A DNA stretch of 64,000 nt, taken from contig CAVPRQ010000017.1 in NCBI GenBank assembly GCA_963707855.1, positions 33,040 through 97,039 on the forward strand, read 5' to 3'. The notes beneath the pieces are model-generated. The model saw nothing but the letters and a program-made list of their open reading frames with translations, was not told the DNA's origin and searched no databases. Below, one piece after another: positions 1 through 60,583 of this stretch (the first letter of the stretch is position 1; each line of letters opens with the position of its first letter). A program made the position numbers and the translations under genes. Source of the DNA: an uncultured Thermoleophilia bacterium (GTDB lineage Bacteria > Actinomycetota > Thermoleophilia > UBA2241).

Positions 1-247
1 CGTCCGGCTCGTAGACCCGCGTCACCGCGGCCGCGCCGGCCCGCTCGACCAGCGCCCCGACCGTCGCCTCCCTGCCCGCAGCGGGCAGCTCGAGCTCGTG
101 CCTCAGGACGAGGACACCGCTGTCCGAGACGCAGAGCGTGACCTCGCAGCCGTTGTCGGCCAGTGTCGCCAGCAGGCGCAGCGCGTAGACGGCGCCGCTG
201 GCGCCGGTGACGCCGAGGAAGACACGTTGTGGTGTCGCTGAAGACAT
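1..247 (-). CDS. ubiX: UbiX-family flavin prenyltransferase, N-terminal 82 codons (gene continues beyond window start)
   Basis: Open at the window edge, so absent from the ORF track. Manual translation from ATG (complement of 245-247) gives MSSATPQRVFLGVTGASGAVYALRLLATLADNGCEVTLCVSDSGVLVLRHELELP... This is the GxTGASG start typical of UbiX/Pad1. Confidence 0.75.
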   Translation of the reverse strand, partial: MSSATPQRVFLGVTGASGAVYALRLLATLADNGCEVTLCVSDSGVLVLRHELELPAAGREATVGALVERAGAAAVTRVYEPD

Positions 248-292
248 GGGTCGATTCTGCCCCGCAAGGGGCTGGTCGTCACAGACGGGGCT

Positions 293-1606
293 TCAGTCGC
301 CGATCGATCCGCTGTGGCAGTCGCCGCCGTAGCAGCCGCCGGGGCCGGCGCCGGCGTTGCCGTGGCACTTGACGCAGACGCCGCCGTTGGAGAACACCGC
401 GTCGGAGTGGTTCGCCTTGAAGGCGCCGCTGTGCGGGAGGCTGACGCCGTGGCAGTTCGAGCAGAAGGATGCGCTGTGGCACTTCGAGCAGACGCCGGGC
501 GAGGCGTAGTACGCCGAGGGGTGCGTCTGCTGGAAGCCGGCCGGGTGCGGCATGGTCAGGCCGTGGCACTTGGTGCAGCTGTTCTTGCCGTGGCACTTGA
601 CGCAGACCTGCTGGTCCTTGGCCGCTACGTTGTCGTGCCGCGCCTCCCAATCCGACGGGTGCGGCATCGCGACGCCGTGGCAGTCGATGCAGAACCTCGG
701 GTCGTCCTTGAGGTGACACGAGACGCAGATCGACTGGCCGCGGTCGAGCACGGTCCTGCCGTGGCGCCTGCTCCCAGCCCTTCGGGTGCGGCATCTGCAG
801 ACCCTGGTGGCAGTCGCTGCAGAACGCCTTGCCGCCGTGACAGCCGGCACACTGCTGCGGCGTCACCTGGACCGTCATCGGCGACCTTCTCGTACCCCGA
901 CGGGAGACCGCCGACGTGGCAGGTGTCGCAGTCGTCCGGGAGCTGCTCGCCGTCGTGGCACCGCGCGCACACCGACATGATCGTGTCCTGGGGCATGCGC
1001 GCCACCTCGAGCTGCGTGCCCGGATGCGAGATGTTCGCGTGACAGGTCAGGCACTGGTAGCCCTCTTCGCGCAGGCCGGTGTGGTTGACGCGGATGTTGC
1101 CGACGACGATGTCGCGCTCGATCTCCTCCTTGGGGTGGCACTGGATGCAGTTGTTGGCGCCCACGTACGTCGTGATGGGCTTCTGGTAGGTGTCCGAGAT
1201 GTAGTTGACGAGGTGCGTCACGCCCTGCAGGTTGCGCACGAAGTAGTTGAAGACGCCCGGCTTGGTGTGGCAGTCCTGGCACACCACGCCGGCGTCGTAG
1301 TGCGCCGTCTGCTTGTACGTGACGACCTCGTCCTTGATGACGTGGCACTGCGCGCACGTGTCCATGCGGTTGAGGGCCGCGAAGGCGACGACGGCGACCA
1401 CGAAGAGCAGGACAAGTGCGACGGTGACGCCGATGAGCCAGCGCCTTGGGGACCGTGACCTCGAGCAGGACGCGGCTGCGGGGTCGGCGACGGCGTGAGC
1501 CGTCGGTCGCGATGGCAGTCTCCTCGCCGCGACCCGCGCTCGCGCTCTCGTCCGCGACCGGCGGCGGCGCGTCCTGCGGGATGCTGGTGTTCGTCTCGTC
1601 GTCCAT
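293..1606 (-). CDS. Membrane-anchored NapC/NirT-type multihaem cytochrome c with C-terminal di-haem repeat extension (15 CxxCH + 1 CX4CH); frame broken about 3 times as assembled
   Basis: Frames 875..1606, 625..2160, 279..878 and 293..850 join into one protein. It runs MDDETNTS..., then TM helix LIGVTVALVLLFVVAVVAFAAL, then the NapC/NirT module TCAQCHVIKDEVVTYKQTAHYDAGVVCQDCHTKPG with CIQCH and CLTCH. These are followed by CARCH, CDTCH, CAGCH, CSDCH, CVSCH, CIDCH, CVKCH, CTKCH, CSKCH, CSNCH, CVKCH and CYGGDCH. Frame breaks lie near 1450-1500, 880 and 775. Confidence 0.8.
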
Positions 1607-1609
1607 GGC

Positions 1610-2160
1610 CTAGAGGCTCGTCTCGGGCGTCGGGCTCGGCGCCGGCGTGTACTCCTGCTCCTCGAACAGGTCGTGGGCGCGCGGGTCGCCCGACGCGTGG
1701 GCGTCGTGGCAGGCCTGGCAGTTGGCGACCTCATGGCAGTTGAAGCACGTCTGCCCGGCGCGTTCGCGCGGCGGCGGGATGCTTGACTACGAAGTTGCCC
1801 GGGTGCGGCATCTTCACCTGATGGCAGGTGTCGCAGTAGGTCTTCGTGTCGTGGCACTGGTCGCACGCCTTCTCGCCGACCTTTCGGTGCGGGGCGCCGT
1901 GCCGCGACAGCCAGTCCTCGGGATGCGGCATCTGCAGCCCGTTGTGACACGAGCTGCAGCTGTCCGGCTCGGTGTGGCAGGCGCTGCAGGTCGAGAGGAT
2001 GCCGACCGAGCCGTGCTCGTCGATCCCACGTCTCCTCGGTGTGCGACACCGGGGCGTCGTCGTAGTCCTTCTCGGCGTGGCAGAGGTCGCAGTCGGCGAC
2101 CGCGACCTTGCCGCCGGCCGTTTCGTAGTGGTTGTTGTGACACAGCAGACACTGGTCCAT
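1610..2160 (-). CDS. Octahaem cytochrome c domain protein (8 CxxCH), no signal peptide of its own; 2 frame breaks
   Basis: Manually joined from three pieces. MDQCLLCHNNHYETAGGKVAVADCDLCHAEKDYDDAPVSHTEETW / IDEHGSVGILSTCSACHTEPDSCSSCHNGLQMPHPEDWLSRHGAPHRKVGEKACDQCHDTKTYCDTCHQVKMPHPGNFVVKHPAAA / RERAGQTCFNCHEVANCQACHDAHASGDPRAHDLFEEQEYTPAPSPTPETSL. Stop TAG at 1610-1612. Breaks near 2020 and 1760. Its ATG is in frame with the upstream ORF across a single TAA. Confidence 0.7.
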
Positions 2161-2166
2161 CGACGG

Positions 2167-2634
2167 TTAGGTGCGCGAGCCCACCGGCACCGCCTCCGGG
2201 TGCCCGACCGTCGAGTGGCAGCGGATGCACAGGAAGCCCGCTTCGATGAGGTGCCGGTGCTCGACCCGGATGCCGTCGACGGTGATCACTCCGAAGAGGT
2301 CGTCGTTGACGTGGCACTGCCGGCACGACTGGTTGAGCACCGAGGCGAGGATGGGCTCCTCGTAGTCGCCGGTGATCTGGGCGATCGGCTGCTGCAGGGC
2401 CTCCATCTTGGCGGTGAGGAAGAAGAAGGGGCCCGGTTTCGAGTGACAGAGCTCGCAGTTGACGTCGCTGTGCCGAGCCGTGCGGTACGAGGCGACGATG
2501 GGCTCGTGGCTCTTGCACAGGCCGCAGAACGTCGGCGTCGAGGTGGCCGTCAGCGTCACCCCGACCACGACGACGGTGATCGTCAGGACGATGACCGCGA
2601 TGGTCAGCCCGCGCTGGGTGAGCCGGAACTTCAC
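2167..2634 (-). CDS. Membrane-anchored NapC/NirT/NrfH-like cytochrome c (3 CxxCH + 1 CxxCK)
   Basis: ORF 2167..2634. N-terminal TM helix LTIAVIVLTITVVVVGVTL, then FCGLCKSHEPIVASYRTARHSDVNCELCHSKPG, CRQCH and CIRCH. The layout matches the N-termini of the 293..1606 and 5662..6672 proteins. Confidence 0.8.
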   Translation of the reverse strand: MKFRLTQRGLTIAVIVLTITVVVVGVTLTATSTPTFCGLCKSHEPIVASYRTARHSDVNCELCHSKPGPFFFLTAKMEALQQPIAQITGDYEEPILASVLNQSCRQCHVNDDLFGVITVDGIRVEHRHLIEAGFLCIRCHSTVGHPEAVPVGSRT

Positions 2635-2710
2635 GCGCTCATGCCCTCGAGACCAGAGGCACGGTCATGGCCGGGAGTCGCCCGCATGGCGCCTGCGTGC
2701 CAAGTCCGCA

Positions 2711-3892
2711 TCACGGCGTCGGGTCGTGGACGACCGACTTGTGGCAGTGCACGCAGGGATACCCACCCGCGTGCGACCTCGCCGACGAGTGGCACCTCGT
2801 GCACGCCGAGCTGGCGACGGCGGCCTGTCCGGCATGGTACTTGCTCTTGTGGCACGACCGGCACGTGGTCGACGCTCCCCTGGACTTGGCGTGGAGCTTC
2901 TTGCTGTGGCAGCCACTGCAGACGAACTTCTTCGTCACTGTCGAGGAATGCTGCGCGCGCGGTTTGGCCGGCGGGGCGCTGCCCTTGTGGCAATCGGCGC
3001 AGCGCGAGCCGGACACCCTCGCGCCGGCGTGCTTCATGGCGTGACAGCTGCGGCAGCTCTTGACCGCCGGCGCAGCCGTCGCGTGGTGGAAGGCGGGCGC
3101 GTTCGTGTGACACTTGGTGCAGGACACGCCGCCGGCGTGCTTCTGGTAACCCTCGTCGTGGCACGACGTGCAGGCGCCGACGTCCGGCGCCGTGTTGTGG
3201 ATCTGGCCGGCGTGGCAGCTGCGGCAGTCGGCGGTGCCGAAGGTCGACGCGGCGTGACATGTCGTGCACGTCGCGGGGACGGCCGGCAGGTCCATGCCGT
3301 CGTGACAGTCCTCACACCCCGTCCCGTCGTGACTCACCTGGGCGGAGGCGTAGGTGCCGTCGTGACAGGCGGTGCAAGATGGCGGCGGTGAGGCGATGCC
3401 GTCGTGGTGCGGGCTGGCGCCTGGATCGGCGTACCCGAGGCTCGTCGAATGGCAATCGAGGCAGACGCCGTACGGCGGCTCGGCCCCGAGATGCGGCTCG
3501 GAGCCGTGACTGAAGGGGACCGAGTACGCGTTGGAGAAGGCGTTGTACAGATGGCAGTCCTGGCTGCAGTCCGCGCTCGTCGAGGAGAACTTGCCCGTGT
3601 CCTCGCCCGGCGCATGACACGACCAGCACGTCTGTGCGAAGCGGCCGTCGACGGTCGCGCCGGGCGTCACCTTGAAGCCGCGATGGCAGAGGCCCGTGCA
3701 TGAGGTGTCCGAGATGCCGTTGGCGTGACACAGGTCGCAGTTCTGCATGGCGGGTCCCGGAGGGATGCCGTCGTGGGCCCAGTTCGAGTACGCGGCGGCC
3801 GGCGCGGCGCACAGCGCCAGCAGGAGCGCCGCGCCGGCCGCCACGACGAGCGATTGGCGGACGATCCGCTTCAGTCCGGCTGCGGTCCCCAT
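2711..3892 (-). CDS. Secreted multihaem cytochrome c (15 CxxCH + 2 CX3CH)
   Basis: ORF 2711..3994. I moved the start to ATG 3892, which has the purine-rich GAGGGGAGGGG just upstream and a signal-like MGTAAGLKRIVRQSLVVAAGAALLLALCAAPAAAYS. Motifs: CDLCH, CWSCH, CLDCH, CTACH, CEDCH, CTTCH, CRSCH x3, CTSCH, CTKCH, CADCH, CSGCH, CTRCH, CVHCH, plus CTGLCH and CSQDCH. Confidence 0.85.
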   Translation of the reverse strand: MGTAAGLKRIVRQSLVVAAGAALLLALCAAPAAAYSNWAHDGIPPGPAMQNCDLCHANGISDTSCTGLCHRGFKVTPGATVDGRFAQTCWSCHAPGEDTGKFSSTSADCSQDCHLYNAFSNAYSVPFSHGSEPHLGAEPPYGVCLDCHSTSLGYADPGASPHHDGIASPPPSCTACHDGTYASAQVSHDGTGCEDCHDGMDLPAVPATCTTCHAASTFGTADCRSCHAGQIHNTAPDVGACTSCHDEGYQKHAGGVSCTKCHTNAPAFHHATAAPAVKSCRSCHAMKHAGARVSGSRCADCHKGSAPPAKPRAQHSSTVTKKFVCSGCHSKKLHAKSRGASTTCRSCHKSKYHAGQAAVASSACTRCHSSARSHAGGYPCVHCHKSVVHDPTP

Positions 3893-3918
3893 GGCCCCTC
3901 CCCTCGCGACGATGGTCC

Positions 3919-4792
3919 TCAATCGAACACCGTCCAGATGATGAACGCCGCCATCAGCACGGCCGCAAGACCGGCGACCGCGGTGAACGACCACCAGATC
4001 ACGTCACCCGCGTACGTGCGCCACGTGATGCGGCGCTCCACGAGGACCTCGTCGAGCGTCCCCTCACGCACGCGGCGAGCATACTCCAAGGGGCGCTCGG
4101 CCTTGTAGTGCTCGACCGGCAAGCGAGCCCGTGAAGATGACCTTGTCGAGCGGGAACGACTCGGGCCTGAGGTGGGCGCTGAAGAGGTGCACGAAGATGA
4201 AGATGACGCCCATCGCGAGGAGCGCCTCGTTGGAGTGGATGACGAGGGCGATATTGAGCACGATCCCCGGCGCGTACCTGGTGGTCTCGATGGGGAACCA
4301 CATCATGAAGCCGGTGAGTCCGATGATCACCGTGCCCACGACCAGCGAGGCGAAGTCGAACTTCTCCCAGTACGTGTAGCGGTCGAACTGCGGCTTGCCG
4401 CCCATACCGAGGAACCAGCGGAACATGCCGACGATGTCACGCAGGTCCTTGCCGCTGAACATCATAGAGCCAGGACCGAGGACTCCGCGGCCGCGGCGGC
4501 GCGCGATCACGACGATCATGTAGATGACCTCGGCCGTCCAGTAGATGACCGTGATGATCGCCGCGATGCGGTGGTAGACGCCGGCGGCGGTCACCCCGCC
4601 CGTCGCGTCCATGAACCACTGGGCCCACTCGGAGTCCTTGTACTTGAGCGGCATGCCCGTGAACACCAGCACGGTGAAGCTCACGAACACGAGGAAGTGC
4701 ATCCAGCGATGGAAGACGTTGAAGCGCAGGTACTCGACCCGCGTCCGGGGCTTGGGGCTTCGCTCAGTGGTGCTTGCGACCGTAGAGGCCAT
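3919..4792 (-). CDS. b-type cytochrome membrane subunit (HydC/FdnI, Ni/Fe-hydrogenase cytochrome b-like), 5 TM; 1 frame break
   Basis: ORF 4064..4975 read from ATG 4792 (MASTVASTTERSPKPRTRVEYLRFNVFHRWMHFLVFVSFTVLVFTGMPLKY...). Conserved His residues sit in TM helices (FHRWMHF, YHRI, VIHSNE, FVHLF). After LRPESFPLDKVIFTGS the protein continues in ORF 3919..4122 (PVEHYKAERPLEY...VIWWSFTAVAGLAAVLMAAFIIW). Break near 4120. Confidence 0.75.
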
Positions 4793-5660
4793 CCTTGATC
4801 CCCCGGTAGATGTACAGGGCGGTGTGGACCCCGCCGAACGTGAAGACGACGGCGATGAGCAGCACGTAGGCGAGCCAGAACAGGAAGACGGTGAAGGAGT
4901 CCGTCGGGTCCTTCGGGTCGATGTGGACCAGGAACCCGGCGAAGTTCTCGTTGGCGCCCGGGTGGCAGCCCGCACAGGTGGCGACCCGGTTCTCGTCCGA
5001 GATCGTGCTCTCGGGGTCTGACGCGGGCAGGATCCTGTGGCCGCCGTGGCAGTCGGGGCAGGTCGCGGCGTCGTCCTTGCCGAGCAGGAACGCCTTGCCG
5101 TGGTAGCTGTCGAGGTAGGTCTCGCTCTTCCCGCCGTGGCACTCCGAGCAGAGGTCGAGGGTGCTGCGCCGGAACTCGAGGCTCTGCGGCGCGACGATGT
5201 TGTGGGGCGTGTGGCAGTCGGCGCAGACGGGCGCGTCCGTGGACTGTTCGTCGAACACCAGGTCGCCGTGGAACGAGTCCTCGTACATGGCGAACTGGTC
5301 GGCGTGGCAGTTGCGGCACGACTTCAGCTTGGCGGTCTGGAGCCACCCCTCGGTCTGCTCCGCCGAGTGCGGGCCCTTCTCGAAGCCGATGTGGCAGCCG
5401 GTGCAGTCGAGCTGGCCGTGCAGCGACGCCTCATAGGCGTCCAGGTCGACGGCCAGCGGCTTGGCCACGCCGTCAACGGTGACCGTGCCCGGGTTATCAG
5501 CGTTGTGGCACTCTCCACACTCCCTGGCGCCGTCCGACAGCGCCGCGGCCCGCGGAGCGTGCGCCGCGGCGCCGACGACGAGAGCCACGGCGAGGAGCAG
5601 GACCAGCCCGAGCAGCCGGGCTGCGCCGCGTCGCGGTGCGACATCGCGACGGGGCGTCAT
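4764..5660 (-). CDS. Heptahaem cytochrome c with signal peptide and C-terminal TM helix (paired-CxxCH type)
   Basis: ORF 4764..5678. Start is likely ATG 5660, with AGGAAGG 7 nt upstream. Motifs CGECH, CTGCH, CRNCH, CADCH, CSECH, CPDCH, CAGCH with recurring S-x-HG (SLHG, SFHG, SYHG). C-terminal helix FTVFLFWLAYVLLIAVVFTFGGV. Confidence 0.85.
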   Translation of the reverse strand: MTPRRDVAPRRGAARLLGLVLLLAVALVVGAAAHAPRAAALSDGARECGECHNADNPGTVTVDGVAKPLAVDLDAYEASLHGQLDCTGCHIGFEKGPHSAEQTEGWLQTAKLKSCRNCHADQFAMYEDSFHGDLVFDEQSTDAPVCADCHTPHNIVAPQSLEFRRSTLDLCSECHGGKSETYLDSYHGKAFLLGKDDAATCPDCHGGHRILPASDPESTISDENRVATCAGCHPGANENFAGFLVHIDPKDPTDSFTVFLFWLAYVLLIAVVFTFGGVHTALYIYRGIKDGLYGRKHH

Positions 5661-5661
5661 C

Positions 5662-6672
5662 TCAGAGCCTTCCTGCATGACAGGCGTCGCACATCGACTG
5701 TGGGTGACAGGTCAGGCACGAGCCCCCGCCGTCCGCCACCGCGCGGTGGGACTGCAGCCAGTCCTCGGGGTGGCTCACGCGGTGGCACTGTTCGCAGAAG
5801 GTGTCTTCGTCATGACATCCCAGGCAGCCGTTGCGGTCCTGCTCGGCGACCGTCTTGTGAGTGTATCGCCAGGTTCCGGAGAAGTGGTCGGCGGTGGGTC
5901 GCGCGTGGCACTCGTCGCAAAAAGCCTCGGGGTTGTGATGACAGCGCAGGCAGGCGCTGTCGTCGGTGAGCGCCTCTTCGCCGTGCGTCTCGATGTAGTC
6001 GGCGGGGTGCGGGTCGGCGGGCGTCTGCGGCGTCAGGTGGCAGAAGTCGCACTGGTTGGCCGCCGTCTCCTGCTCGTGGCACATGCCGCAGACGCTCATC
6101 GAGACCTTGCCGGCCTCGGCGCGCTCGCCGTGCGAGACCTTGTCGTGGCAGTCGGCGCAGACGAGCCCGCTGATCCCCACGTGACGCTCGTGCGGCAGGC
6201 GGACCGTGTCGTGCTCGTCGCCGATCGCGCTCACGTCGTGGCACGGGGTGCAGTTCTCGTCGCCGGGGCGCTCGCCGGGTTGATCCGTCTGTGGCACGTT
6301 GAGGTAGTCGGCCCAGATGTTGAGCCACTCCTGCGTTCGCCACTTGATCTGGTTCCAGGCGCCGGGAGCGATGTGGCAGTCGACGCATTCGACGTCGGAA
6401 TGGACGGAGCCGGCCCAAGCTTCGGCGGCCGGCTCGGTCGCCTTGCAGGAGCCGCAGTAGGACGAGGACGAGGTGGCCGCCACGGGGACCCAGACGAGGA
6501 CGCCGACGATGATGATGATGACAATGACGACGAGGGTCGCGACCCACGGGGAGCGTCTCCGGCGCGGAGGAGGCCGATGCGGATGCTCGCTGCTGCCCTC
6601 GACGCTCACGTCGTCGGTCTTCCCCTCGGCTCCTGGTGGCGATGTCGTCGGCGGCAAGCCTACGGTCCCCAC
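5662..6672 (-). CDS. Membrane-anchored NapC/NirT-type multihaem cytochrome c with C-terminal extension (11 CxxCH + 1 CxxCK)
   Basis: ORF 5662..6672, GTG start. TM helix WVATLVVIVIIIIVGVLVWVPV, then YCGSCKATEPAAEAWAGSVHSDVECVDCHIAPG. Further motifs: CTPCH, CADCH, CGMCH, CDFCH, CLRCH, CDECH, CLGCH, CEQCH, CLTCH, CDACH. Confidence 0.85.
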   Translation of the reverse strand: MGTVGLPPTTSPPGAEGKTDDVSVEGSSEHPHRPPPRRRRSPWVATLVVIVIIIIVGVLVWVPVAATSSSSYCGSCKATEPAAEAWAGSVHSDVECVDCHIAPGAWNQIKWRTQEWLNIWADYLNVPQTDQPGERPGDENCTPCHDVSAIGDEHDTVRLPHERHVGISGLVCADCHDKVSHGERAEAGKVSMSVCGMCHEQETAANQCDFCHLTPQTPADPHPADYIETHGEEALTDDSACLRCHHNPEAFCDECHARPTADHFSGTWRYTHKTVAEQDRNGCLGCHDEDTFCEQCHRVSHPEDWLQSHRAVADGGGSCLTCHPQSMCDACHAGRL

Positions 6673-6759
6673 ACGGTGCCGCCGAACGCGGCGATTGTAC
6701 CATCCCGGGTATCGAGCGGCGAGCGCGACAAAACGCGGCGCCGGCGCCTGCCGCCGTGC

Positions 6760-7622
6760 CTAGAGCAGGAGCACGGCGACGATGACGACGGCGCCGTACA
6801 GCAGGCCCACGGCGCCGTTGAGGCTCATGAAGCCCATGCCGACCTCGTCAAGCCCGCGGCGAGCGATGTCGACATGCGACCACCCGAGCAGCGCGGCGAC
6901 GGCGAGGAGGCCGATCCAGTAGACCAGCCCGAGACCGAGGAGAGCCCCGACCGCGGCAAGCAGCGCGATCGCGGCGACGTGCGAGAGCAGGGCGACGAGC
7001 AGGGCCCGGCGCCAGCCGAGCGCCACGGCCACCGAGTGCAGGCCCTCGCGCCGGTCGAAGTCGAGGTCGAAGATGCCGTAGATGACGTCGAAGCCTCCGA
7101 CCCACAGGCAGACGGCGAGGAACAGCAGCACCGTCTCGAGCGCCACGCTGCCGGTCACGGCGACCCAGGCGGCGGCCGGGGCGAGCCCGAGCGTCAGGCC
7201 CAGGGCGTAGTGGCAGAGGGCCGTCACCCGCTTCGAGTAGGGGTACGCGACGAACGCCGCGAGAGGGATCGGCCAGAGATAGCGGCACGGCGGCGAGAGC
7301 TGGAACGCCGCGATCACCAGCAGGGCGACCGAGACGGTCGTGAAGAACCAGACGTCCTTGCGGCGCAGCTTGCCGGCTGGCAGCTCGCGCGCCGCCGTGC
7401 GCGGGTTGCGTGCGTCGATCCCGGCGTCGATGAGGCGGTTGAGCGCCATGGCGGAGCTGCGCGCGCCGACCATGGCGACGGTGATCCACAGAAGGTCCCA
7501 CCAGCCGGGGAAGCGCAGCTCCGCGAGAAACGCCCCCGCGAAGGCGAACGGCAGCGCGTAGACGCTGTGCTCGATCTTGATGAGGCGCGCGAAGAGCAGA
7601 GGACGCTCAGAAGGGGCGTCAC
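6760..7622 (-). CDS. UbiA-family aromatic polyprenyltransferase (menaquinone-type)
   Basis: ORF 6760..7473 plus manual upstream extension in the same frame: ERPLLFARLIKIEHSVYALPFAFAGAFLAELRFPGWWDLLWITVAMVGARSSAMALNRLIDAGIDARNPRT... Multi-TM. There is no in-frame ATG/GTG upstream of LIKIEHSV. The GTG at 7622 is one frame off, so the start is uncertain (1-nt indel or an unusual start). Confidence 0.8.
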
Positions 7623-7632
7623 CCGGTCGTGC

Positions 7633-7929
7633 TCACGGAACGGCGGCGGGCGTCAGACGTCGGCGGACGCGGATCGACGGGCCCGCAGGTGGCGCTGCCC
7701 GCGACTCGACGGAAGCAGTCTCCGGCTCGGTGCCGAAGTCGGCGAGGACGAAGGAAGTGATGGCGACGACGGCGGCGAAGAGCCCGATGACGAAGAGGAT
7801 CGCGTACACGAAGATGCTGGTCGGTACGGCGATCCCGAGGTAGGAGCTCAGGGTCCAGCAGGCGATGGCGATCGCCCAGTTGGCGATCGAGAGGATCAAC
7901 AAGTGACGATGGATGTTGCCGTGCAGCAC
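7633..7929 (-). CDS. Small two-TM membrane protein, unknown function
   Basis: C-terminal part of ORF 7633..8208. GTG at 7929 is preceded by GAGGAGG at 5-nt spacing. Sequence VLHGNIHRHLLILSIANWAIAIACWTLSSYLGIAVPTSIFVYAILFVIGLFAAVVAITSFVLADFG... G/C-rich third positions. Confidence 0.5.
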   Translation of the reverse strand: MLHGNIHRHLLILSIANWAIAIACWTLSSYLGIAVPTSIFVYAILFVIGLFAAVVAITSFVLADFGTEPETASVESRAAPPAGPSIRVRRRLTPAAVP

Positions 7930-8017
7930 CGCCGCCTCCTCACGTGTCGTCGCGCGGCCGCCTCGCGGCCCAGTGTAGGTCCCGTCCGTCCCGGCGTAAA
8001 GCGTCGTCGGGCGGCGC

Positions 8018-9466
8018 TCAGGCGAACGGCAGGCCGAACTCGGCCCACCGTTCGCTGACGCGCCGCACGACGTCCGGGTCCTGGGCGAGCTCGTCCGGCC
8101 ACTCGCGGCCGTGGCCCTCCTCGGGCCAGGTCTTCGTCGCGTCGATGCCCATCTTGGCCCCGTAGCGCGCGAACGGGCTCGAGTGGTCGAGCACGTCGAG
8201 GGGACCATCGACGATGAGGCAGTCGCGGCGCGGGTCGACGTTGTTGAACACGCGCCACGTCACCTCGCTGTAGTCGTGCACGTCGACGTGCTCGTCGACG
8301 ACGACGACGAACTTGGTGAACATCATCTGCCCCATCCCCCACACGGCGCTCATGATCTTGCGCGCCTGCCCGGGGTAGGTCTTGCGGATGGCGATGATGG
8401 CGCAATCGTGGAAGACGCCCTCGATCGGCAGGTCCATGTCGACGATCTCGGGCTGCACCAGTCTGAGCAGGGGCAGGAAGAGCCGTTCGGTCGCCTTGCC
8501 GAGGTAGGCGTCCTCCATCGGCGGACGGCCGACGATGGTCGCCGGGTAGATGGGGTCGCGCCGGTGCGACATCGCCGTCAGGTGGAAGACCGGGTACTGG
8601 TCGGCGAGCGAGTAGTACCCGGTATGGTCGCCGAAGGGTCCCTCGAGCCGCGTCTCGTCCTTCTCGACGTAGCCCTCGAGGACGATCTCGGCGTCGGCCG
8701 GCACCTCGAGATCGACCGTACTGCACGGGGCGAGCTCGACCGGCTCGCCGCGCAGGAACCCGGCGAACATGAACTCGCTGATGCCGGGCGGCAGCGGCGC
8801 CGTCGCGGCGTAGGTGATCGCCGGGTCCGTCCCCAGGGCGACGGCGACTTCGAGCCGGCCGTCGGCCTCGCGGAAGTTGGCGGCGCCGTCGTGATGGATG
8901 TGCCAGTGCATGCCGGTGGTCTGGCCGTCGTAGACCTGCAGCCGGTACATGCCGGCGTTGCGCCGCCCCTCGCGGTCCTTGGTGACCACGACGGGCAGCG
9001 TGATGAACGGGCCGCCGTCGCCCGGCCAGGTCGTCAAGACGGGCAGACGGGAGAGGTCGGGAGGTTCGACGACGACCTCGCGGAAGGCAGCCTTCTTCGC
9101 CATGCGCGGCCCGTAGGAGGCGAGCTCCTTGAGCTGGCCGAGCGCCTTGACCTTGCCGACGAGGCCGCTCGGCACCTGCAGCTCGAGCAGGCCGGCGATG
9201 CGCTGGGCGAGCTCGTCGAGCGGCGCGCCCAGCGCGAGCTCCAGCCGGCGGAGCGAGCCCAGCTGGTTCATGAGCACGGGGACGGCCGGCGCCCCGGGGC
9301 CGGCCTTGACCTTCGGCCGCTCGAAGAGCAGCGCCGGCCCGTGCGCCTTGCTCGTCCGGTCGGCGATCTCGGCCATCTCGAGGTAGGGGTCGACCTCGAC
9401 ACGCACCCGCGTCAGCTCGCCCTCGCGTTCGAGCAGCTCGATGAAACGACGCAGGTCCATGGTCAC
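8018..9466 (-). CDS. UbiD-family (prenylated-FMN dependent) decarboxylase, menaquinone biosynthesis type
   Basis: Uninterrupted 482-aa ORF. DLRRFIELLEREGELTRV..., GMYRLQVYDGQTTGMHWHIHHDG, GPFGDHTGYYS and IVGRPPMEDAYLGKATERLFLP are all typical of UbiD. GTG start overlaps the upstream stop (GTGA). Confidence 0.88.
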   Translation of the reverse strand: MTMDLRRFIELLEREGELTRVRVEVDPYLEMAEIADRTSKAHGPALLFERPKVKAGPGAPAVPVLMNQLGSLRRLELALGAPLDELAQRIAGLLELQVPSGLVGKVKALGQLKELASYGPRMAKKAAFREVVVEPPDLSRLPVLTTWPGDGGPFITLPVVVTKDREGRRNAGMYRLQVYDGQTTGMHWHIHHDGAANFREADGRLEVAVALGTDPAITYAATAPLPPGISEFMFAGFLRGEPVELAPCSTVDLEVPADAEIVLEGYVEKDETRLEGPFGDHTGYYSLADQYPVFHLTAMSHRRDPIYPATIVGRPPMEDAYLGKATERLFLPLLRLVQPEIVDMDLPIEGVFHDCAIIAIRKTYPGQARKIMSAVWGMGQMMFTKFVVVVDEHVDVHDYSEVTWRVFNNVDPRRDCLIVDGPLDVLDHSSPFARYGAKMGIDATKTWPEEGHGREWPDELAQDPDVVRRVSERWAEFGLPFA

Positions 9467-10083: not shown

Positions 10084-10757
10084 GAGACCGGATCGCCCTC
10101 GTCGGTCGACCCGGCCAGGCAGAACGAGAGGAACATCAGCTCGCTCGAGAGGTCGACCGGCCGGACCGTGACGTGCGGCGGGGTCGTGACCTTGACCGGG
10201 GCGAAGTTGAGGATCGCCCGCACGCCCGCGGCCGCGAGACGGTCGACCGTCGCCTGGGCCTCGGCAGCAGGAACGGTGACGAGAGCGATGTCGACCGGGG
10301 TCTCGGCGCAGAAGCCCTCGAGCCCGTCGATCGAGCTCACGCGCCCGCTGCCGAAGCTCGCCCCGATCACGGTGGGCGAGCTGTCGAACATGCCGACGAG
10401 CTCGAAGCCTTGTTCGGCGAACCCCCGGTAGCGAGCCAGAGCCGTACCCAGCAAGCCGGCCCCGACGATGATCACGTTCCACGGGTGCTCAAGGCCGAGA
10501 GAGCGCGTGATCTCGGTGATCAGGCGCGACACCTCGTAGCCGACGCCGCGGGTGCCGAACTCGCCGAAGTACGAGAAGTCCTTGCGGATCTGCGCGGCGT
10601 TGAGACCGACCATCGCGGCGAGCTCCTTCGACGAGACGCGCTCGACGCCGCGTCCGCGCAGCTCACGCAGCTTGCGCAAGTACAGGGCGAGACGCGGGAC
10701 CGTGACCTCGGGGACGTGCCGCTTGCCGCCGTCGCGCATGGTCCCTCCTCGGGTCAT
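10080..10757 (-). CDS. rex: Redox-sensing transcriptional repressor Rex
   Basis: 225-aa ORF. wHTH region [55 protein letters not shown] followed by the Rossmann motif [18 protein letters not shown] overlaps the hemL stop (ATGA). Confidence 0.92.
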
Positions 10758-12037
10758 CCGGCGAAGAACGCCCGGGCGGCGGCCTCGGCGGTCGCCAGGT
10801 CGTCGTCGGTCAGCGCGAGCGAGACCATGGTGGCCTCGAACTGCGACGGGGCGAGGTAGATGCCGCGATCGAGCATGTGCCGGTGGTAGGCGGCGAACGC
10901 CTGCGTGTCGGCGCGCTTCGCGTCGGCGAAGCGGGCGACCGGGCCGTCGCAGAAGAACATCGTCATCATGGCTCCGACCTGGTTGAGCGTGACGGGGCGC
11001 TCGCCCTGGGCCGCCGCGGCGCGCAGCGCCGCGGCGAGCCGGTCGGCGAGCGCCTCCAGGCGTTCGTAGGTCCCGGGCTCGCTCAGCACGCTCAAGGTCG
11101 CCGCTCCGGCGGCCATCGCCAGCGGATTACCGGACAGGGTGCCGGCCTGGTACGTCGACCCCAGCGGCGCCACCGTCTCCATGAGCTCGCGGCGGCCGCC
11201 GAAGGCGCCGACCGGCAGGCCACCACCGATGATCTTGCCGAGCGTCGTCATGTCGGGGACGACGCCGAAGCGCTCCTGGGCGCCGCCCCAGGCGACGCGG
11301 AACCCGGTGATGACCTCGTCGAAGATGAGGACGGCCCCGTACTGGGTGCAGAGCTCGCGGGCGCGCTCGAGAAAGCCGGGCCCGGGCGGTACGACGCCCA
11401 TGTTGCCGGCGACGGGCTCGACGATGAGGGTGGCGATCTCCTCACCGCGCTTCTCGAACAGCGCCTCCATGGCCTCGATATCGTTGTACTCGAGCAGCAG
11501 GGTGTCGGCCGTGGTGGCCTTCGTGACCCCTGGGCTATCCGGCAGCGAGAGCGTGAGCACGCCGCTGCCGGCGGCGGCGAGGAAGGCGTCGGAGTGGCCG
11601 TGGTAGCAGCCGATGAACTTGACGATCTTGTCGCGCCCGGTGAAGCCGCGGGCGACCCTCACGGCGCTCATCGTCGCCTCTGTCCCCGAGTTGACCATGC
11701 GCACGAGCTCGATCGAGGGGACGGCGCCGCAGATGAGGCGCGCCAGCTCGACCTCGAGTGCCGTCGGCGCGCCGAAGCTCGTGCCCTCCTCGAGCACCTG
11801 ATGCAGGCGATCCAGGACCTGAGGATGTCCCCAGCCGAGGATCATCGGTCCCCACGACGAGACGAAGTCGACGAACTCGTTGCCGTCGGCGTCCCACACG
11901 TGGGCGCCGCGGGCGCGGGCGATGAACAGGGGGTGCGGCATGCCCACGCCCTTCATCGCCCGGACCGGCGAGTTGACGCCGCCGGGGATGTACTTGAGCG
12001 CCTCTTCGAACAGACGCTTGGACGTGCTGGTGTTCAC
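10754..12037 (-). CDS. hemL: Glutamate-1-semialdehyde 2,1-aminomutase
   Basis: Uninterrupted 427-aa [25 protein letters not shown]..., [32 protein letters not shown] and [17 protein letters not shown] (PLP lysine region). Confidence 0.93.
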
Positions 12038-12144
12038 GCTCTCCTCCGGACCGGTCGTGCGACGTGAGGTGGCGAATATACTACGCCCTCGCAGGGCAAA
12101 GCCCCCGATGCAGCAACGACCTCGGCTCGATGAAGGGGTGCGAG

Positions 12145-12603
12145 ATGGCCGAACCCAAAGGCGGCGATGTCGTGATCAGGGCGGCGACCGCGGCCGACGC
12201 GGCCGCGGTCGCCGCCCTGATCCGCCTGATGGCCGAGCAGTACGACGAGCACTCGCCGGTGACCACCGAGTGGGTCGCCGAGTGCCTCGGCGACGACAGC
12301 TTCTTCGCCGTCGTCGCCGACCTCGACGGCGACGTCGTCGGCGTCGTCACCTTCGTCCTCGTCCGCGGCCTGTTCCACGCGAAGCAGTCGGCCGTCATCC
12401 AGGAGGCCTCCGTCGCGCCCGCCCATCAGAACGAGGGCATCGGGCGGGCGCTGCTTGAAGAAGCCGTCGCCCGGATCAAGCAGCTCGACGTGGCCGAGAT
12501 CAGCATCTCGACCGGCTTCGAGAACGAGCGCGCCAAGTACCTCTACCGCTCGCTCGGGTTCGTCGAGGAGACGCTGATGCTCGAACAGCATCTGGGCGCC
12601 TGA
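12145..12603 (+). CDS. GNAT family N-acetyltransferase
   Basis: ORF 12064..12603, with the likely start at ATG 12145 (or 12130). [16 protein letters not shown]..., acetyl-CoA loop [15 protein letters not shown]-terminal YRSLGF. Confidence 0.8.
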
Positions 12604-12605
12604 GG

Positions 12606-13052
12606 ATGAGCGTGGAGATCCGCGACGCGACGCCCCTCGACGCCAGCGCCCTGCTCCCGCTCATCGTCGAGATGGGGGTCGGCTTCCACCGGCCCTCCGG
12701 AGCCGACGCGGCCTTCGTCGCGCGGTATCTCGAGCAGCCCGGCCAGGGCATCCTGCTCGCGCTCGTCGACGGGGCGCCCGTGGGCTTCCTCGCCCACGCG
12801 ACCACGCTCGACCTCTATCTGGGCGGACCGACCGGGGAGATCGTCGACCTGCTGGTGACCGAACGGGCGCGCGGCAGGGGCGTCGGCACGGCGCTCGTCG
12901 CCGAGGCGGTGCGGCGCTTCGACGAGGCCGGCTGCGGCGAGGTTCGGGTCGTCACCGACGCCGACAACCTCGCCGCCATACGGGCCTACGCGAAGGCGGG
13001 CATCGGCGGCGACCTCATCTGCCTTCACCGGCACTTCGGCGGCGAGGAGTGA
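12606..13052 (+). CDS. GNAT family N-acetyltransferase (second, tandem)
   Basis: 148-aa ORF. IRDATPLDASALLPLI..., RGRGVGTALVAEAVRRFDEAG, AIRAYAKAGI. Confidence 0.8.
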   Translation: MSVEIRDATPLDASALLPLIVEMGVGFHRPSGADAAFVARYLEQPGQGILLALVDGAPVGFLAHATTLDLYLGGPTGEIVDLLVTERARGRGVGTALVAEAVRRFDEAGCGEVRVVTDADNLAAIRAYAKAGIGGDLICLHRHFGGEE

Positions 13053-13067
13053 GATGTCTGACCGGCC

Positions 13068-14232
13068 TCAGGCCGGCGCGCACCAGCCCTTCGGCACGTA
13101 GGCGCAGTAGGGCTCCTCGGCCATGTAGTCGCCGGTCGCCTCGTAGGCGCGCGCCCGGCAGCCGCCGCAGACCCTCTTGAACTCGCAGGCGCCGCACTTG
13201 CCCTTGAGCCCGTCGAAGTCGCGCAGCTCGTTGAAGAGCGGCGAGTCGTTCCACACCTCGGGGAAGGGCTGCTCGCGGACGTTGCCGGCGATCTTGTCGA
13301 AGTAGCCGCAGCCCTGCACGTCCCCGCGGTGGCTGATGAAGCAGAAGCCTATGCCGGCGAGGCAGCCACGGCTGAGCGTGTTCATGCCGCCGTGGCTGTG
13401 CGGGTGCACCTCGAGCTTGCGCCCCTGCGCCTTGGCGCGCTGGCGCATGACGCGCCAGTAGTGCGGCACGTCGGTGGGCTTCATGAAGAGGTCGCTCTGC
13501 TGCTGCGCGTCGTACATCCACTCCAGGGCGCGCTCGTACTCCTCCGGCGGCAGCTCCTGCTCCTCGAGCTCCTTGCCGCGGCCGGTGGGAACGAGCATGA
13601 ACGGGTGGAACGAGACGGCGCCGAGGTCCTCGGAGAGCTTGAGCAGCGCCGGCAGGTGGTGCACGTTCAGCTTGGTGATCGTGCTGTTGATCTGCACCTC
13701 GACGCCGGCGTCGAGGCAGTTGCGCACGCCGCGCACGGCGCCGTCGAAGGCGCCGGGGACGCCGCGGAACTCGTCGTGCTCGGCGGCGCTCGGGAAGTCG
13801 ATGGAGATGCTGACGCGAGCGATGCCGACGTCGTGCATGCGACGCGCGACCTCCGGCGTGACCAGCGTGCCGTTCGGCGACATCACCGTGCGCAGCCCCT
13901 TGCCGATGGCGTACTCCGCGATGTCGAAGATGTCGGCGCGCATCAGCGGATCGCCGCCGGTGAGGATGAGGATGGGGTTCGCGAACGAGGCGATCTGGTC
14001 GACGAGGGTGAAGGCCTCGGCGGTGCTGAGCTCGCCCTCGTAGGGGCCGTGCACCGCCGAGGCGCGGCAGTGCACGCAGGCGAGGTTGCAGCTGCGCGTG
14101 ACCTCCCAGGCGATGACGCGCGGCGGCGCGACGCCGGCGGCGTCGCCGGGCCGCGCGCCGGTCCTGCGGAGTTTTCAGCGTGCGGATGGTGCAAACCGAC
14201 CTCAGTGTGCCAGACGGAGGGGGGCGCCGCAA
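13068..14232 (-). CDS. Radical SAM/SPASM protein of the AhbC/AhbD/NirJ (haem-modifying) type; 1 frame break near the 5' end
   Basis: ORF 13068..14075 extends upstream in frame to ...VIAWEVTRSCNLACVHCRAS (CxxxCxxC), then TGGDPLMRADI, with a C-terminal Cys-rich SPASM region GCLAGIGFCFISHRGDVQGCGY...GKCGACEFKRVCGGCRARA. No in-frame start follows the upstream stop. The likely start is 14232 in the frame of ORF 13015..14232, with an indel near 14160. Confidence 0.7.
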
Positions 14233-14284
14233 CGTCGCCTGCCCGTCGCGACAGGGACTGGCTTCGTCGCCCGGCCGCCGCCGC

Positions 14285-15051
14285 TCACACGTCCTTGCGC
14301 GCCTTCCAGATCTCCTCGCACGGCCAGCGCCGCGCCCATTCGAGCTCCACGATGCCCTCGAAGGTGGTGGTCGCGTCCGGCCCCGGCCGCACCTCGATCA
14401 GGTCCTCGACCTGGAACCCGTTGGCGCGCAGGAGCCTGACCCAGTCGCCGTAGCCGAGGTGGAACTCGATGGTGTCATCGTCAGGCCATTCGAAGCGGTG
14501 CATGCCGAAGTAGTCGCGCGCGAGCCGCTCACCCGCCGACGCGTCGGCGTCGTCCGACGTGCAGAGCATCATGAGCGTGCTGTTGGTGAGGAAGATGAGG
14601 CGGCCGCCGGGGCGAAGCAGGCGGGCCGCCTCCGGCACCCAGACGGTACGGGTCGGCCCAGAGGCACGCCCCGTACTCGCTGATCGCGAGGTCGAAGCTC
14701 GCGTCGGGTAGCGGCACGTGCTCGGCGTTGCCCTCGATGAGCGGGAACTCGAGACCGTGCTCGGCCTGGAGCCGGCGCGCCGTGGCGAGCTGGGCGCTCG
14801 AGAGGTCGATGCCCACCGGGCGTGCGCCGCGGCGCGCGAGCCAGGCCGAGACGTAGGCCGGTGCCACAGCCGAGCTCGATCGCGTCCAGCCCGTCGAGGT
14901 CGTCGGGCAGGACGTGAAGCTCGGCCTCGGGCACGCTCCAGATGCCCCAGCTCGGCTCGTCGTCCGCCCAGGCGCGCTCGCCAAAGGCGACGAAGTCCTT
15001 GGCGAGCTCGTTCCAGGCGGCGCGGTTGCGCTCGACGTGGTCGCCGGTCAT
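14285..15051 (-). CDS. Class I SAM-dependent methyltransferase; 2 frame breaks
   Basis: Join of ORFs 14569..15051 ([20 protein letters not shown]...[10 protein letters not shown]), 14529..14984 ([30 protein letters not shown]...[10 protein letters not shown]) and 14285..14638 ([18 protein letters not shown]...). ATG overlaps the hemB stop (ATGA). Confidence 0.75.
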
Positions 15052-17548: not shown

Positions 17549-18930
17549 TCATCGGAATCGCGCGGTGTTTTCTAAAGAGCCTACGTCGCGCTCGGCGCAG
17601 TCTACGTCGTGCGCGTCGCCGGCGCTCCCGCCGGCGGTCGCGGCGGCGGCCGAGGCCGAGGCCCCTCCGCCGAGCACGCTGTCGGGCTCGGGGTCGTCGG
17701 GCAGGCAGGCCGGCGCCTCGCAGGCGCCGGCCTGGATCTCCCGACGGCGCAGCGCCCAGAGGGCGCCGGCGGCGGTGGCCAGGGCGGCGACGCCGCCCAC
17801 CGCCACCGCCGCCCGCACCCCGAACTCGCGCGCGAGCAGCCCGGTGAGCGGCCCGCCGATCGGCGTGCTGCCGAGGAAGACGACCGCCCACAGGGCCATG
17901 ACGCGGCCACGCATCGCGTCCTCGGCGTTGAGCTGCAGCAGCGAGTTGGTCGTCGAGACGAAGAGCACGCCGGCGGCGCCCAGCGGCACGAGGAGGACGA
18001 GGCCGAGCGCGTAGCCCGGGGCCGCCGCAAGCAGCACGGTGAGGACGCCGAAGGTGAACGTGCTCACGACGAGGAGGCGGCGCGACGGGCGCGCCCGACT
18101 GGCCATGAGCAGGGCGCCCGCCAGGGCGCCGACGCCCATGGCCGCGAACAGCGCGCCGTAGGCGCCGCCCCCGCGCCCGTAGACCACCCGGGCGAGCAGC
18201 GGGAGGACCACGGAGAAGTTGTAGGCCAGGGTGCTCACGACGGCCATCATGACGAGCGGCACGCGCAGCGCCGGCGTGCGCCACACGTAGCGCAGGCCGG
18301 CGCGCACCTGGCCCGGCCGCCGCTGGACGCGGCCGCGCCGGTGAGGAGCTCGCCGCGGCGCATCGCCAGCAGCGCCGCGATGACGGCCACGAACGAGGCG
18401 GCGTTGAAGAAGAAGCACGCCGCCACCCCTACCGAGGCGATGAGCACGCCGCCGATCGCCGGCCCGATGATCCGCGACGAGTTGATGATCACGGCGTTCA
18501 GCCCGACGGCATTGGCGAGGTCGTCGGGTCCGACCATCTCGTAGACGAAGCTCTGGCGCGACGGCATGTCCAGGGCGACGGCGATACCGGTGAGCGTCGC
18601 GAGGACCCAGATCATCCAGATGGTGACGACGTCGGCGACGGTCAGCGCGCCGAGGACCAGCGCGAGAAGCGCCGCCGCCGTCTGCGTGACGACCAGCAGG
18701 CGGCGCTTGTCGACGCGGTCGGCGAGCGCGCCGGCCCAGGCCCCCAGCACCAGGATGGGGCCGAACGTCAGGCCGACGGTGACGCCCAGGTCGACGCTGC
18801 TGCCCGTGAGGTCGAGGACGAGCCATGCCAGCGCCACCGATTGCATCCAGGTGCCGCTCATGCTCACGATCTGGCTGAAGAAGAACAGGCGGTAGTTGTG
18901 GATGCGCAGCGCCCGGAAGGTGCGGCGCAC
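17549..18930 (-). CDS. MFS transporter (EntS/MFS_3-like); 1 frame break
   Basis: Join of 18247..18930 (MRRTFRALRIHNYRLFFFSQIVSMSGTWMQSVALAWLVL...) with 17549..18952 (...VRAGLRYVWRTPALRVPLVMMAVVSTLAYNF...). About 12 hydrophobic helices. Break near 18330. Confidence 0.78.
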
Positions 18931-19009
18931 GAGACTCGATCGGGCTGGTCATACGGGACGGCTCCGGCGGTCGGGCATCCGACGGGCATCGTCCGCGAGT
19001 CTATGCCCG

Positions 19010-22947: not shown

Positions 22948-23940
22948 TGAACGCCCGCACGCTGCGCGCGCTCGCGCCGCTCGTGGCCGTCGCCGTCGTG
23001 GCGCGCTGCTGCCGCTGCTGGTGACCGACCGCTTCCTGCTCAAGGTGTTCACCTTCGCCGGCATCAACGCCCTGGTCGTCGATCGGCCTCGCGCTGCTCT
23101 TCGGCCACGCCGGCCAGGTGTCGCTCGGCCACGCCGCCTTCGTCGGCATCGGCGCCTACACGTGCGCCGTGTGCACGGTCGAGCTCGGGTGGCCGTGGCT
23201 GCTCGGCCTTCGCCGCCTCCGGCGCGCGTCGCCGCGCCTCGGCGGGCTCGCTGCTCGCCCTGCCCAGCCTGCGCCTCAAGGGGCACTACCTGGCGATGGC
23301 GACGCTCGGGCTTCGGCGAGCTCATGACGCTCGCGTTCAGGGAGGCCGAACCGCGTCACCGGCGGCGTCGACGGGTTCGGCGGCATCCCCTTCCCCTCCC
23401 TGGGCCCGTTCGAGATCGACGAGGCCGCCTCGCTCTACTGGCTCGTCTGGGGGTCGCCGGCCTGGCGCTGCTCGCACGTCTACAACGTCACCTCGCAGCG
23501 GCCCGGCCGCGCGATGCGCGCCCTGCACGGCAGCGAGCTGGGCGCGCAGGCCTGCGGCGTCGACGTCGTCGGCGTGAAGGTGCGGACGTTCGTCGTCAGC
23601 GCCCTGCTCGCCGGCCTCGCCGGCGCCCTCTACGCGAGCGTCGTCGGCTTCGTCTCGCCGAGCGTGCTTCACGCTCGCCGCGTCGGTCACGTTCCTGGCC
23701 ATGGCCGTGCTCGGCGGCACCGGCTCGCTCGCCGGACCGATCGCCGCGGCGGTGCTGCTCACGCTGCTGCAGTACCTCGACGCGCTGATCCCGGGCATCC
23801 CGCGACGAGACGGCCGCAGACGATCCAGACCTACCAGGAGGACATCTACGGCCTCGCCATCGTCCTCGTCGTGATCTTCGCCCCCGGCGGGCTCGCCGGC
23901 CTGTGGCGCCGGCGGCGCGAGGGAGGCGACGGCGGCGTGA
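22947..23940 (+). CDS. livM: Branched-chain amino acid ABC transporter permease (LivM family); many frame breaks
   Basis: ATG 22947 overlaps the livH stop (TGATG). Pieces: [18 protein letters not shown]..., [40 protein letters not shown], and [44 protein letters not shown] ... [12 protein letters not shown]. The end is uncertain: as assembled it reads in frame into livG. Confidence 0.7.
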
Positions 23941-36779: not shown

Positions 36780-36814
36780 ACTCCTTCCGGACGAGCTTCG
36801 AGCGGAGGACACAT

Positions 36815-48381: not shown

Positions 48382-48390
48382 CGCGCCGGG

Positions 48391-57750: not shown

Positions 57751-57989
57751 CCTCGCTCTCTCCTCCAGTCTGATCGCCGGCCGTCGCGCCGGCTTCTCGT
57801 CGAGGTAGCCCGCCCCGCCGAATCATCACTCTGCAGGCGTCTCCCCACCGCGTCGAGAGCCCTCGCAGCTCCCGGGACGACTCAAGGCTACACCCTCGAC
57901 CGCTCCGGCTGGTGCAGCCCAGGCTGCGAGTACGCTCGGGCGCGACCCCCAGGCCAAGGAGACGACCCAGCCGACTTCGTGCCGCCTCC

Positions 57990-60579: not shown

Positions 60580-60583
60580 GTGA

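Follow-up and report, generated by a model that had tools for sequence, protein, structure and literature searches.

The question posed by this locus is what becomes of the haem at a quinol site when the histidine of its binding motif is replaced by lysine. The window analysed, a stretch of 64,000 nucleotides from an uncultured Thermoleophilia bacterium (contig CAVPRQ010000017.1), encodes three membrane-anchored multi-haem cytochromes with a NapC/NirT-type module, denoted paralogues A, B and C. Two of them, A and C, carry CxxCK in place of CxxCH at the haem beside the quinol site, i.e. haem 1 of the module, and this is apparently an undescribed variant of a known enzyme family. The corrected gene models, and one codon of paralogue A that is central to the argument, are as follows.

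1610..2634, minus strand: paralogue A, about 340 amino acids; a transmembrane (TM) helix and a NapC/NirT module are followed by a multi-haem extension at the C terminus.
2506..2508, minus strand: His43 of paralogue A (codon CAC), two residues past the lysine and kept as CxxCKSH in all K-form orthologues of A.
293..1606, minus strand: paralogue B, with a TM helix, a NapC/NirT module and an extension; 15 CxxCH in intact orthologues.
5662..6672, minus strand: paralogue C, an intact TM-anchored cytochrome of 336 amino acids with an N-terminal NapC/NirT module, 11 CxxCH and one CxxCK.

The motifs reported in the initial annotation were confirmed by translation and by inspection of the codons. On the minus strand, nucleotides 2512-2526 encode CGLCK in paralogue A, the lysine codon being AAG at 2512-2514, and nucleotides 6442-6456 encode CGSCK in paralogue C, where the AAG at 6442-6444 is followed by codons for Ala-Thr. 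Paralogue B has TCAQCHVI at the same place, with CAQCH at 1342-1356 (minus strand) and the histidine codon CAC. The spacing described for the three modules downstream of this motif had to be amended: 13 residues, not 15, separate the lysine or histidine from the next conserved histidine, and the aspartate that follows is separated from the next cysteine by two residues in A and C and by four in B, rather than by one to three. After repair of its reading frame paralogue A contains 11 CxxCH and one CxxCK, a total of 12 haem motifs. No other CxxCK was found among the long open reading frames (ORFs) of the window that are supported by third-codon-position GC content (GC3), and the two that were found, one in A and one in C, align with each other, a coincidence beyond what chance would give.

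All three proteins scored above the gathering cut-off of 24.1 bits for Cytochrom_NNT (PF03264), with 51.6 bits for A, 40.8 for C and 46.5 for B. In each module the cysteine pair lies about eight residues beyond the TM helix, which is preceded by basic residues, and the AlphaFold model of C places a helix at residues 42-67 ahead of C73, an arrangement which fits one TM helix at the N terminus and a haem 1 directly on its outer side. The family is described as having four CxxCH per module; this holds for B and for the H-form orthologues, i.e. those with CxxCH at the first motif, whereas the modules of A and C contain three CxxCH and one CxxCK. The score against the NCBIfam equivalog for NrfH (TIGR03153) was 38.5 bits, far below the cut-off of 134.2, and the proteins are not counted as NrfH proper. 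No nrfA-like gene was present in the cluster, and no match to PF02335 (Cytochrom_C552) was obtained.

The positional homology of the CxxCK motif was established by comparison with NrfH of Desulfovibrio vulgaris, which was the sole meaningful match when phmmer was run against all PDB sequences. The segment FCGLCKSHEP of paralogue A aligns to FCTSCHIMNP of NrfH (2J7A chain C), with CGLCK lying over C43-H47. Residue by residue, K41 falls on His47, H43 on Met49, H55 on His61, the second haem motif on C66-H70 and K76 on Lys82. K76 is conserved in all orthologues of A; paralogue C has K110 and R112 near the Lys82 position, where the register is uncertain. The AlphaFold model of C, which contains no haem and was used for fold only, had a pLDDT (predicted local distance difference test) value of 83-95 across the module. 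Its best PDB fold match was again 2J7A chain C (probability 1.00, target-normalised TM-score 0.51, 140 aligned columns), with a weak Foldseek E-value of 0.024. The alignment of K41 with His47, together with the structural match, identifies the cysteine pair as homologous to the haem-1 motif.

Haem 1 of NrfH is itself unusual, as the initial annotation had stated in agreement with the literature. Its proximal ligand is Met49 of CXXCHXM, two residues past the motif histidine (the +2 position), and the motif histidine, His47, is not a ligand. The haem is high-spin, Asp89 is its distal neighbour, and HQNO (2-heptyl-4-hydroxyquinoline N-oxide), an analogue of quinol, binds adjacent to this haem; the haem 1 beside the quinol site is high-spin in CymA and ImoA as well. 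A lysine belongs to the quinol site, being Lys82 in NrfH and Lys91 in CymA. The helix that aligns with the distal pocket of NrfH (residues 71-95) contains conserved Lys/Arg and acidic residues; it has no histidine in A or C, and one in B (VTHLVNY). Because no histidine is available in that helix, haem 1 of A and C is probably five-coordinate or high-spin, like that of NrfH, CymA and ImoA, while haem 1 of B is likely to be bis-His, as in NapC.

The resemblance of A and C to NrfH (2J7A/2VR0) extends beyond the alignment, to a single N-terminal TM helix, a haem 1 at the membrane interface and the four-haem NapC/NirT fold, and the NrfH signature CxxCHxM is shared with the H-form orthologues of both lines. 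The differences are that A and C have lysine for the motif histidine, that the +2 methionine has become histidine (A) or threonine (C), that Asp89 is not conserved, and that the module is part of a larger fusion with eight more haems, 12 in total, and has no nrfA partner.

The spread of lysine at this site was then determined among relatives. In line C, 76 of the 120 cluster representatives that are relatives of paralogue C have CxxCK as the first motif, together with exactly 11 further CxxCH. In the sister groups all 12 motifs are CxxCH, the first of them as CxxCHxM. Both cysteines of the first motif (C73 and C76 of C) are invariant in an alignment of 61 sequences in which K and H forms are mixed. 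Relatives of line A were collected by an exhaustive HMMER search of 1.84 billion representatives, a word-indexed search with the 155-residue ORF having given 14 matches. All full-length close relatives of A have FCxxCKSH, and the wider A family has CxxCH in 129 of 143 aligned matches. K forms occur in ENA, JGI, Logan and NCBI assemblies, including the metagenome-assembled genome (MAG) UBA2241, and come from many independent metagenomes. The cysteine pair, the lysine and the spacing to the TM helix are fixed down to about 45% identity in two independent lines. At the +2 position the 94 K forms have threonine (59), methionine (19), histidine (15, all from line A) or proline (1); methionine occupies it in 100 of the 174 H forms.

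Eight related loci (L001-L008) were compared with the window, the closest genomes being MAGs of Thermoleophilia (Actinomycetota). The state of each module could be set out for the window and six of these loci.

Window and L001-L004: C in the K form, A in the K form, B in the H form.
L007: C is CGSCHSM, with an extra C-like copy CTSCKSM; A is CGSCKSH; B is in the H form.
L008: C is CMSCKAT; A is CSACHNM; B is in the H form.

At least one K-type and at least one H-type module are thus retained in all seven loci. Because syntenic orthologues differ in state in L007 and L008, the residue has switched independently in the two paralogue lines, with at least two switches. In line A the switch is read as coupled, from CxxCHxM to CxxCKSH, the histidine arriving at +2 as the motif histidine is lost. 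In line C the path read from the alignment is CxxCHxM to CxxCKxM to CxxCKAT, the early-branching K forms being CxxCKxM and the crown group, which includes the window, CxxCKAT. The comparison supports the view that the change is genuine and under selection.

The extra C-like paralogue of L007 (5590-6537) lies upstream of UbiA and combines the lysine with a retained +2 methionine. A neighbour-joining tree of 279 modules required eight parsimony changes, a count inflated by N-terminally truncated fragments and not used here. Covariation was seen in the C family, in that G133/Q133 and D122 follow the K/H state; being confounded by phylogeny, it was set aside. A further difference was noted ahead of the fourth haem motif, around residue 128 of A (window about 2251-2253, EHRHLIE). 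The K-form orthologues of A have H-x-H there, the only H-form orthologue (L008) has H-x-Q, and B has a single histidine; with one H form available, a link to the K/H state is unproven.

Taken as a whole, these observations lead us to favour the reading that haem 1 is retained in A and C, covalently attached and with a non-canonical proximal ligation at the quinol site, to which we assign a probability of roughly 0.55. The two proteins would be selectively maintained variants of a NapC/NirT/NrfH-type menaquinol dehydrogenase module, an activity predicted from the menaquinone operon in which the genes lie. The ancestral state of both lines would have been the NrfH-like CxxCHxM. Since both cysteines and the lysine are invariant over deep divergence, the haem is presumed to be still attached, held through the two cysteines. 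The replacement of histidine by lysine may have been possible because the ancestral motif histidine was probably already free of a ligand role, as in NrfH. In line A, with CxxCKSH, either the +2 histidine or the lysine would be the proximal ligand, and the histidine is a serious alternative to the lysine. In CxxCKAT the lysine would be the sole plausible proximal ligand, in the manner of NrfA, and lysine ligation in paralogue C is accordingly rated as plausible. The initial annotation had suggested a lysine-ligated or high-spin first haem in a quinol dehydrogenase module, of a kind not known to be described. The novelty of such a site stands, but lysine ligation is not established by the motif, since Met49 rather than the motif histidine ligates haem 1 of NrfH.

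A number of points weigh against this reading. System II haem lyases normally need the motif histidine, and no CcsA WWD motif was detected in any of the six frames of the window and of L001-L008. The statement in the initial annotation that CxxCK is the signature of the lysine-ligated haem of NrfA and needs a dedicated lyase agrees with the literature, the machinery being NrfEFG in System I and NrfI in the System II of Wolinella succinogenes, with Shewanella as an exception. No family of the Ccm, Res or Ccs type appeared in a Pfam scan of 20 further large ORFs of the window, and no extra lyase of the CcsBA/ResBC or NrfEFG/NrfI type was found in the window or the eight related loci. Histidine counts do not decide the distal ligand, since the N-terminal half of A and C, which carries six haems, contains six conserved histidines outside the motifs against five canonical haems. 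The coupled change of methionine to histidine in line A rests on one H-form orthologue (that of L008) and on more distant outgroups. Finally, paralogues A and B are disrupted in this window. In the alignment of 61 sequences the C family has 11 motif histidines and 11 further conserved ones; such counting had been considered as a way to decide the distal ligand of haem 1 and was dropped as decisive evidence after comparison with paralogue A.

The alternative which survives best, although we regard it as unlikely, is that the haem is kept and the lysine is never an iron ligand, the +2 methionine or histidine being proximal as in NrfH. The precedent is NrfH, in which it is Met49 that ligates and not His47, and the methionine or histidine that aligns with Met49 is kept at +2 in 34 of the 94 K forms. 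The lysine would then serve in propionate pairing, in proton handling for menaquinol or in recognition during haem attachment, and the conserved basic and acidic residues of the distal helix are consistent with a site of that kind. In the CxxCKAT proteins the iron would have to be held from the other face only, or by a residue elsewhere. It is here that the proposal meets a difficulty: 59 of the 94 K forms have threonine at +2, which is unable to ligate iron, and yet the lysine is invariant. In addition, in the CxxCK cytochromes that have been characterised, NrfA and octahaem nitrite reductase, the iron is without exception ligated proximally by lysine.

It is also conceivable, but improbable, that the K forms no longer bind haem 1, a loss which the initial annotation had suggested as its second option. 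The cysteine pair would then form a disulfide or bind something else, and A and C would be 11-haem wires which no longer react directly with quinol; paralogue B and the nearby pair of cytochrome b and heptahaem cytochrome would carry out that chemistry instead. The general requirement of System II lyases for CxxCH and the lack of a dedicated lyase in the neighbourhood would be explained on this basis, and the cluster does encode other candidates for reaction with quinol, in paralogue B and an FdnI-like cytochrome b. Against it, the cysteine pair, the lysine and the spacing to the TM helix are invariant to about 45% identity in two lines, the cysteines being unchanged in K and H forms alike. 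Structural or disulfide-forming cysteines would need no invariant lysine directly after them, and the equivalent of Lys82 of the quinol site is retained in A.

The disruption of A and B in the window required separate attention. Gene models were corrected by three-frame translation, by GC3 frame plots and by tblastn with intact homologues. An in-frame TAA at 2167-2169 (minus strand) breaks paralogue A into an ORF of 155 residues and another beginning six bases on, so that the protein assigned to 2167..2634 in the initial annotation is not a 155-residue protein; it is the N-terminal part of a 12-haem gene of about 340 codons running from 2634 to 1610. L001 and L002 have GAA at this site (GSRTEPSMDQC) and more distant orthologues have TAC (GSRTYPSMDQC); the TAA may be a substitution introduced in assembly or else a genuine nonsense mutation. 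Paralogue A also has one-nucleotide insertions near 2027 and 1766. Paralogue B has three one-nucleotide frameshifts, near 1451, 883 and 766-754, and the treatment of 293..1606 as one protein holds once three single-base frame corrections have been applied, but not for the sequence as assembled. The cytochrome b gene is frame-shifted near 4120, its C-terminal part lying in another frame.

Intact counterparts of A, B and C are present in L001-L004, L007 and L008, except for C in L002, and intact A proteins, P0122 included, are 344-350 residues long. L002 is a sister MAG with 95.5% nucleotide identity over the cluster stretch; its A, at 14032-15051, and its B are intact and its C is frameshifted. 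Compared with L002, the window has extra bases at the points where the frame of A and B shifts, and several of these insertions fall within G or C runs; the GC3 coding signal continues unbroken over the frameshifts. The overlapping plus-strand ORFs are antisense artefacts of a 70% GC genome, since the GC3 signal tracks the minus-strand frames. Beyond the stretch 293-4800, single-base indels are scattered over the rest of the window too, for example at 18250-18948, 23328-24773 and 35789-37441. There is also a truncated major facilitator superfamily gene, and there are implausible fusions (a permease with an ABC ATPase, and Oxidored_FMN with an MttB fragment). Because of these truncations and fusions, the similarly scrambled tails of several database relatives and the converse state of L002, which is the pattern of random error, the breaks in A, B and the cytochrome b gene are attributed to an indel-prone assembly rather than to gene decay.

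Such a background of indels, with the stop in A and the frameshifts in A and B, is what might suggest that the lysines themselves are base-calling or assembly errors for histidine, or marks of decaying pseudogenes, but this is very improbable and was rejected, miscalled AAG codons being excluded for practical purposes: the change from CAC to AAG takes two substitutions and would have had to arise identically in two paralogues, the same lysine occurs in about 90 independent cluster representatives and in the intact genes of L001-L004, L007 and L008, and neither the unbroken GC3 signal nor the pattern in L002 points to decay.

With the retained, non-canonically ligated haem as the preferred reading, A and C may be compared with other systems. 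CymA, NapC, TorC and ImoA belong to the same PF03264 family and have the same membrane topology. Unlike A and C, the described members of that group have all four motifs as CxxCH, none being reported with CxxCK, and unlike the CymA-type tetrahaem enzymes the proteins of the window are fusions of 12 to 15 haems in a monoderm actinobacterium. ImcH of Geobacter is an inner-membrane cytochrome related to NapC/NirT in which haem 1 is predicted to be His/Gln-ligated. It provides a precedent in two respects: the coordination of haem 1 varies in the wider family, and one organism can have several cytochromes that oxidise quinol, each for acceptors of another potential. ImcH differs in keeping CxxCH at haem 1, in having three TM helices and seven haems, and in being proteobacterial. 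The catalytic haem of NrfA and of octahaem nitrite reductase has the identical five-residue CxxCK motif, and perhaps shares with A and C a lysine-iron proximal ligation and a five-coordinate haem. A and C nevertheless have no sequence or fold homology to NrfA, and their motif lies at a membrane quinol site rather than at a substrate-reducing active site; the match of the C model to octahaem nitrite reductase 2OT4 was insignificant (E = 4.9). No description of CxxCK in NapC/NirT/NrfH proteins was found in full-text searches of open-access papers, a scope within which absence is no proof.

The genes around the three paralogues are kept in a common order in the window, L001-L004, L007 and L008, which in three consecutive parts is as follows.

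Part 1: Rex, UbiD-family menaquinone decarboxylase, small TM protein, MqnP-like prenyltransferase, paralogue C.
Part 2: seven-haem cytochrome with a C-terminal TM helix, FdnI-like cytochrome b, exported cytochrome of 11 to 15 haems.
Part 3: paralogue A, paralogue B, UbiX, UbiE, polyprenyl synthase, CofH_C-type radical S-adenosylmethionine (SAM) protein, VitK2_biosynth protein.

The multi-haem cluster (window 2-9466, minus strand) sits inside a menaquinone operon, an arrangement kept across Thermoleophilia MAGs; the portion from UbiE to the VitK2_biosynth protein was read in relatives. About 61 c-type haems and one cytochrome b are encoded within this futalosine menaquinone operon. The neighbouring genes identified in the window are listed below.

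8018..9466, minus strand: UbiD-family menaquinone biosynthesis decarboxylase (mena_SCO4490, 611 bits against a cut-off of 496).
6760..7632, minus strand: UbiA/MqnP-like menaquinone prenyltransferase, directly upstream of paralogue C.
4764..5678, minus strand: cytochrome c of seven haems with a TM helix at its C terminus; the cytochrome b encoded next to it is its partner.
3919..4792, minus strand: membrane cytochrome b of the FdnI/HydC type (PF01292), with an intact counterpart in L001 at 11857-12729.
2711..3994, minus strand: an exported c-type cytochrome carrying 15 CxxCH; its gene separates that of cytochrome b from paralogue A.
2..292, minus strand: N-terminal part of a UbiX-type flavin prenyltransferase, directly downstream of B and running off the start of the window.

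The UbiX orthologue carries a PF02441 annotation in L007 and L008. The window has one gene for the seven-haem cytochrome and another for the FdnI/HydC-like cytochrome b; in L007 (6534-8333) and L008 (4840-6660), which have a second copy, the two are fused into a protein of about 600 residues. CbcL of Geobacter is a multi-haem c domain fused to a HydC/FdnI-type cytochrome b, and the pair is likened to this quinol oxidoreductase in architecture, the haem number being different.

Several other genes of the window may be recorded here. A hemL gene (10754-12037, minus strand) and a gene for an AhbD-like radical SAM/SPASM protein (13071-14174, minus strand) adjoin the cytochrome cluster. The latter protein scored 513 bits against the equivalog cut-off of 500 for the AhbD haem b synthase, a match that points to a siroheme-dependent haem pathway in an actinobacterium, beside the cytochrome cluster. 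At the far end, 56290-63998 contains an MttB-family methyltransferase gene (59161-60933), genes for two FAD (flavin adenine dinucleotide)-dependent DAO oxidoreductases (56290-57822 and 62421-63998) and an EamA transporter gene, and looks like a methylated-amine or betaine catabolic cluster. The gene at 46261-48390 (minus strand) encodes a protein of 710 residues whose N-terminal third contains Fic_N and Fic domains and whose long C-terminal region is unannotated.

The joint retention of both kinds of module in this setting bears on their use. The K- and H-type modules may connect the menaquinone pool with an extracytoplasmic electron conduit of roughly 60 haems, as points of entry or exit that are tuned differently from one another. 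The three NapC/NirT-type modules and the CbcL-like pair of cytochrome b and heptahaem cytochrome, by their place in a menaquinone operon, suggest several such links between menaquinone and a long haem wire in a monoderm cell. A more far-reaching proposal may be put forward tentatively, as possible rather than probable. The Thermoleophilia would have evolved, at least twice, a new class of quinol-site haem c, bound by CxxCK and ligated by lysine (CxxCKAT) or by a shifted histidine (CxxCKSH, in effect CxxCxxH). Its maturation would depend on a System II of undescribed specificity, and the K and H modules would be kept together in a single menaquinone-linked operon as redox 'gears', differing in potential or in direction, that supply an extracellular conduit of about 60 haems in a monoderm.

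CxxCK is regarded as very rare and as essentially the hallmark of the catalytic haem of NrfA and octahaem nitrite reductase. The modules described here would offer another natural setting, independent of the first, for asking how lysine ligation affects a haem c, and they raise the specific issue of how the System II cytochrome c synthases of actinobacteria recognise their substrates. The natural orthologue pairs which differ in H or K, and in M, H or T at +2, in an otherwise identical context are ready-made 'mutants' for the tuning of haem 1 in menaquinol oxidation by NrfH/CymA-type enzymes, for which, to our knowledge, a single structure is available. In practical terms, haem counting by CxxCH alone gives one haem too few for each of A and C, and pipelines that rely on it may miss a large menaquinone-linked multi-haem system in the abundant Thermoleophilia of soil.

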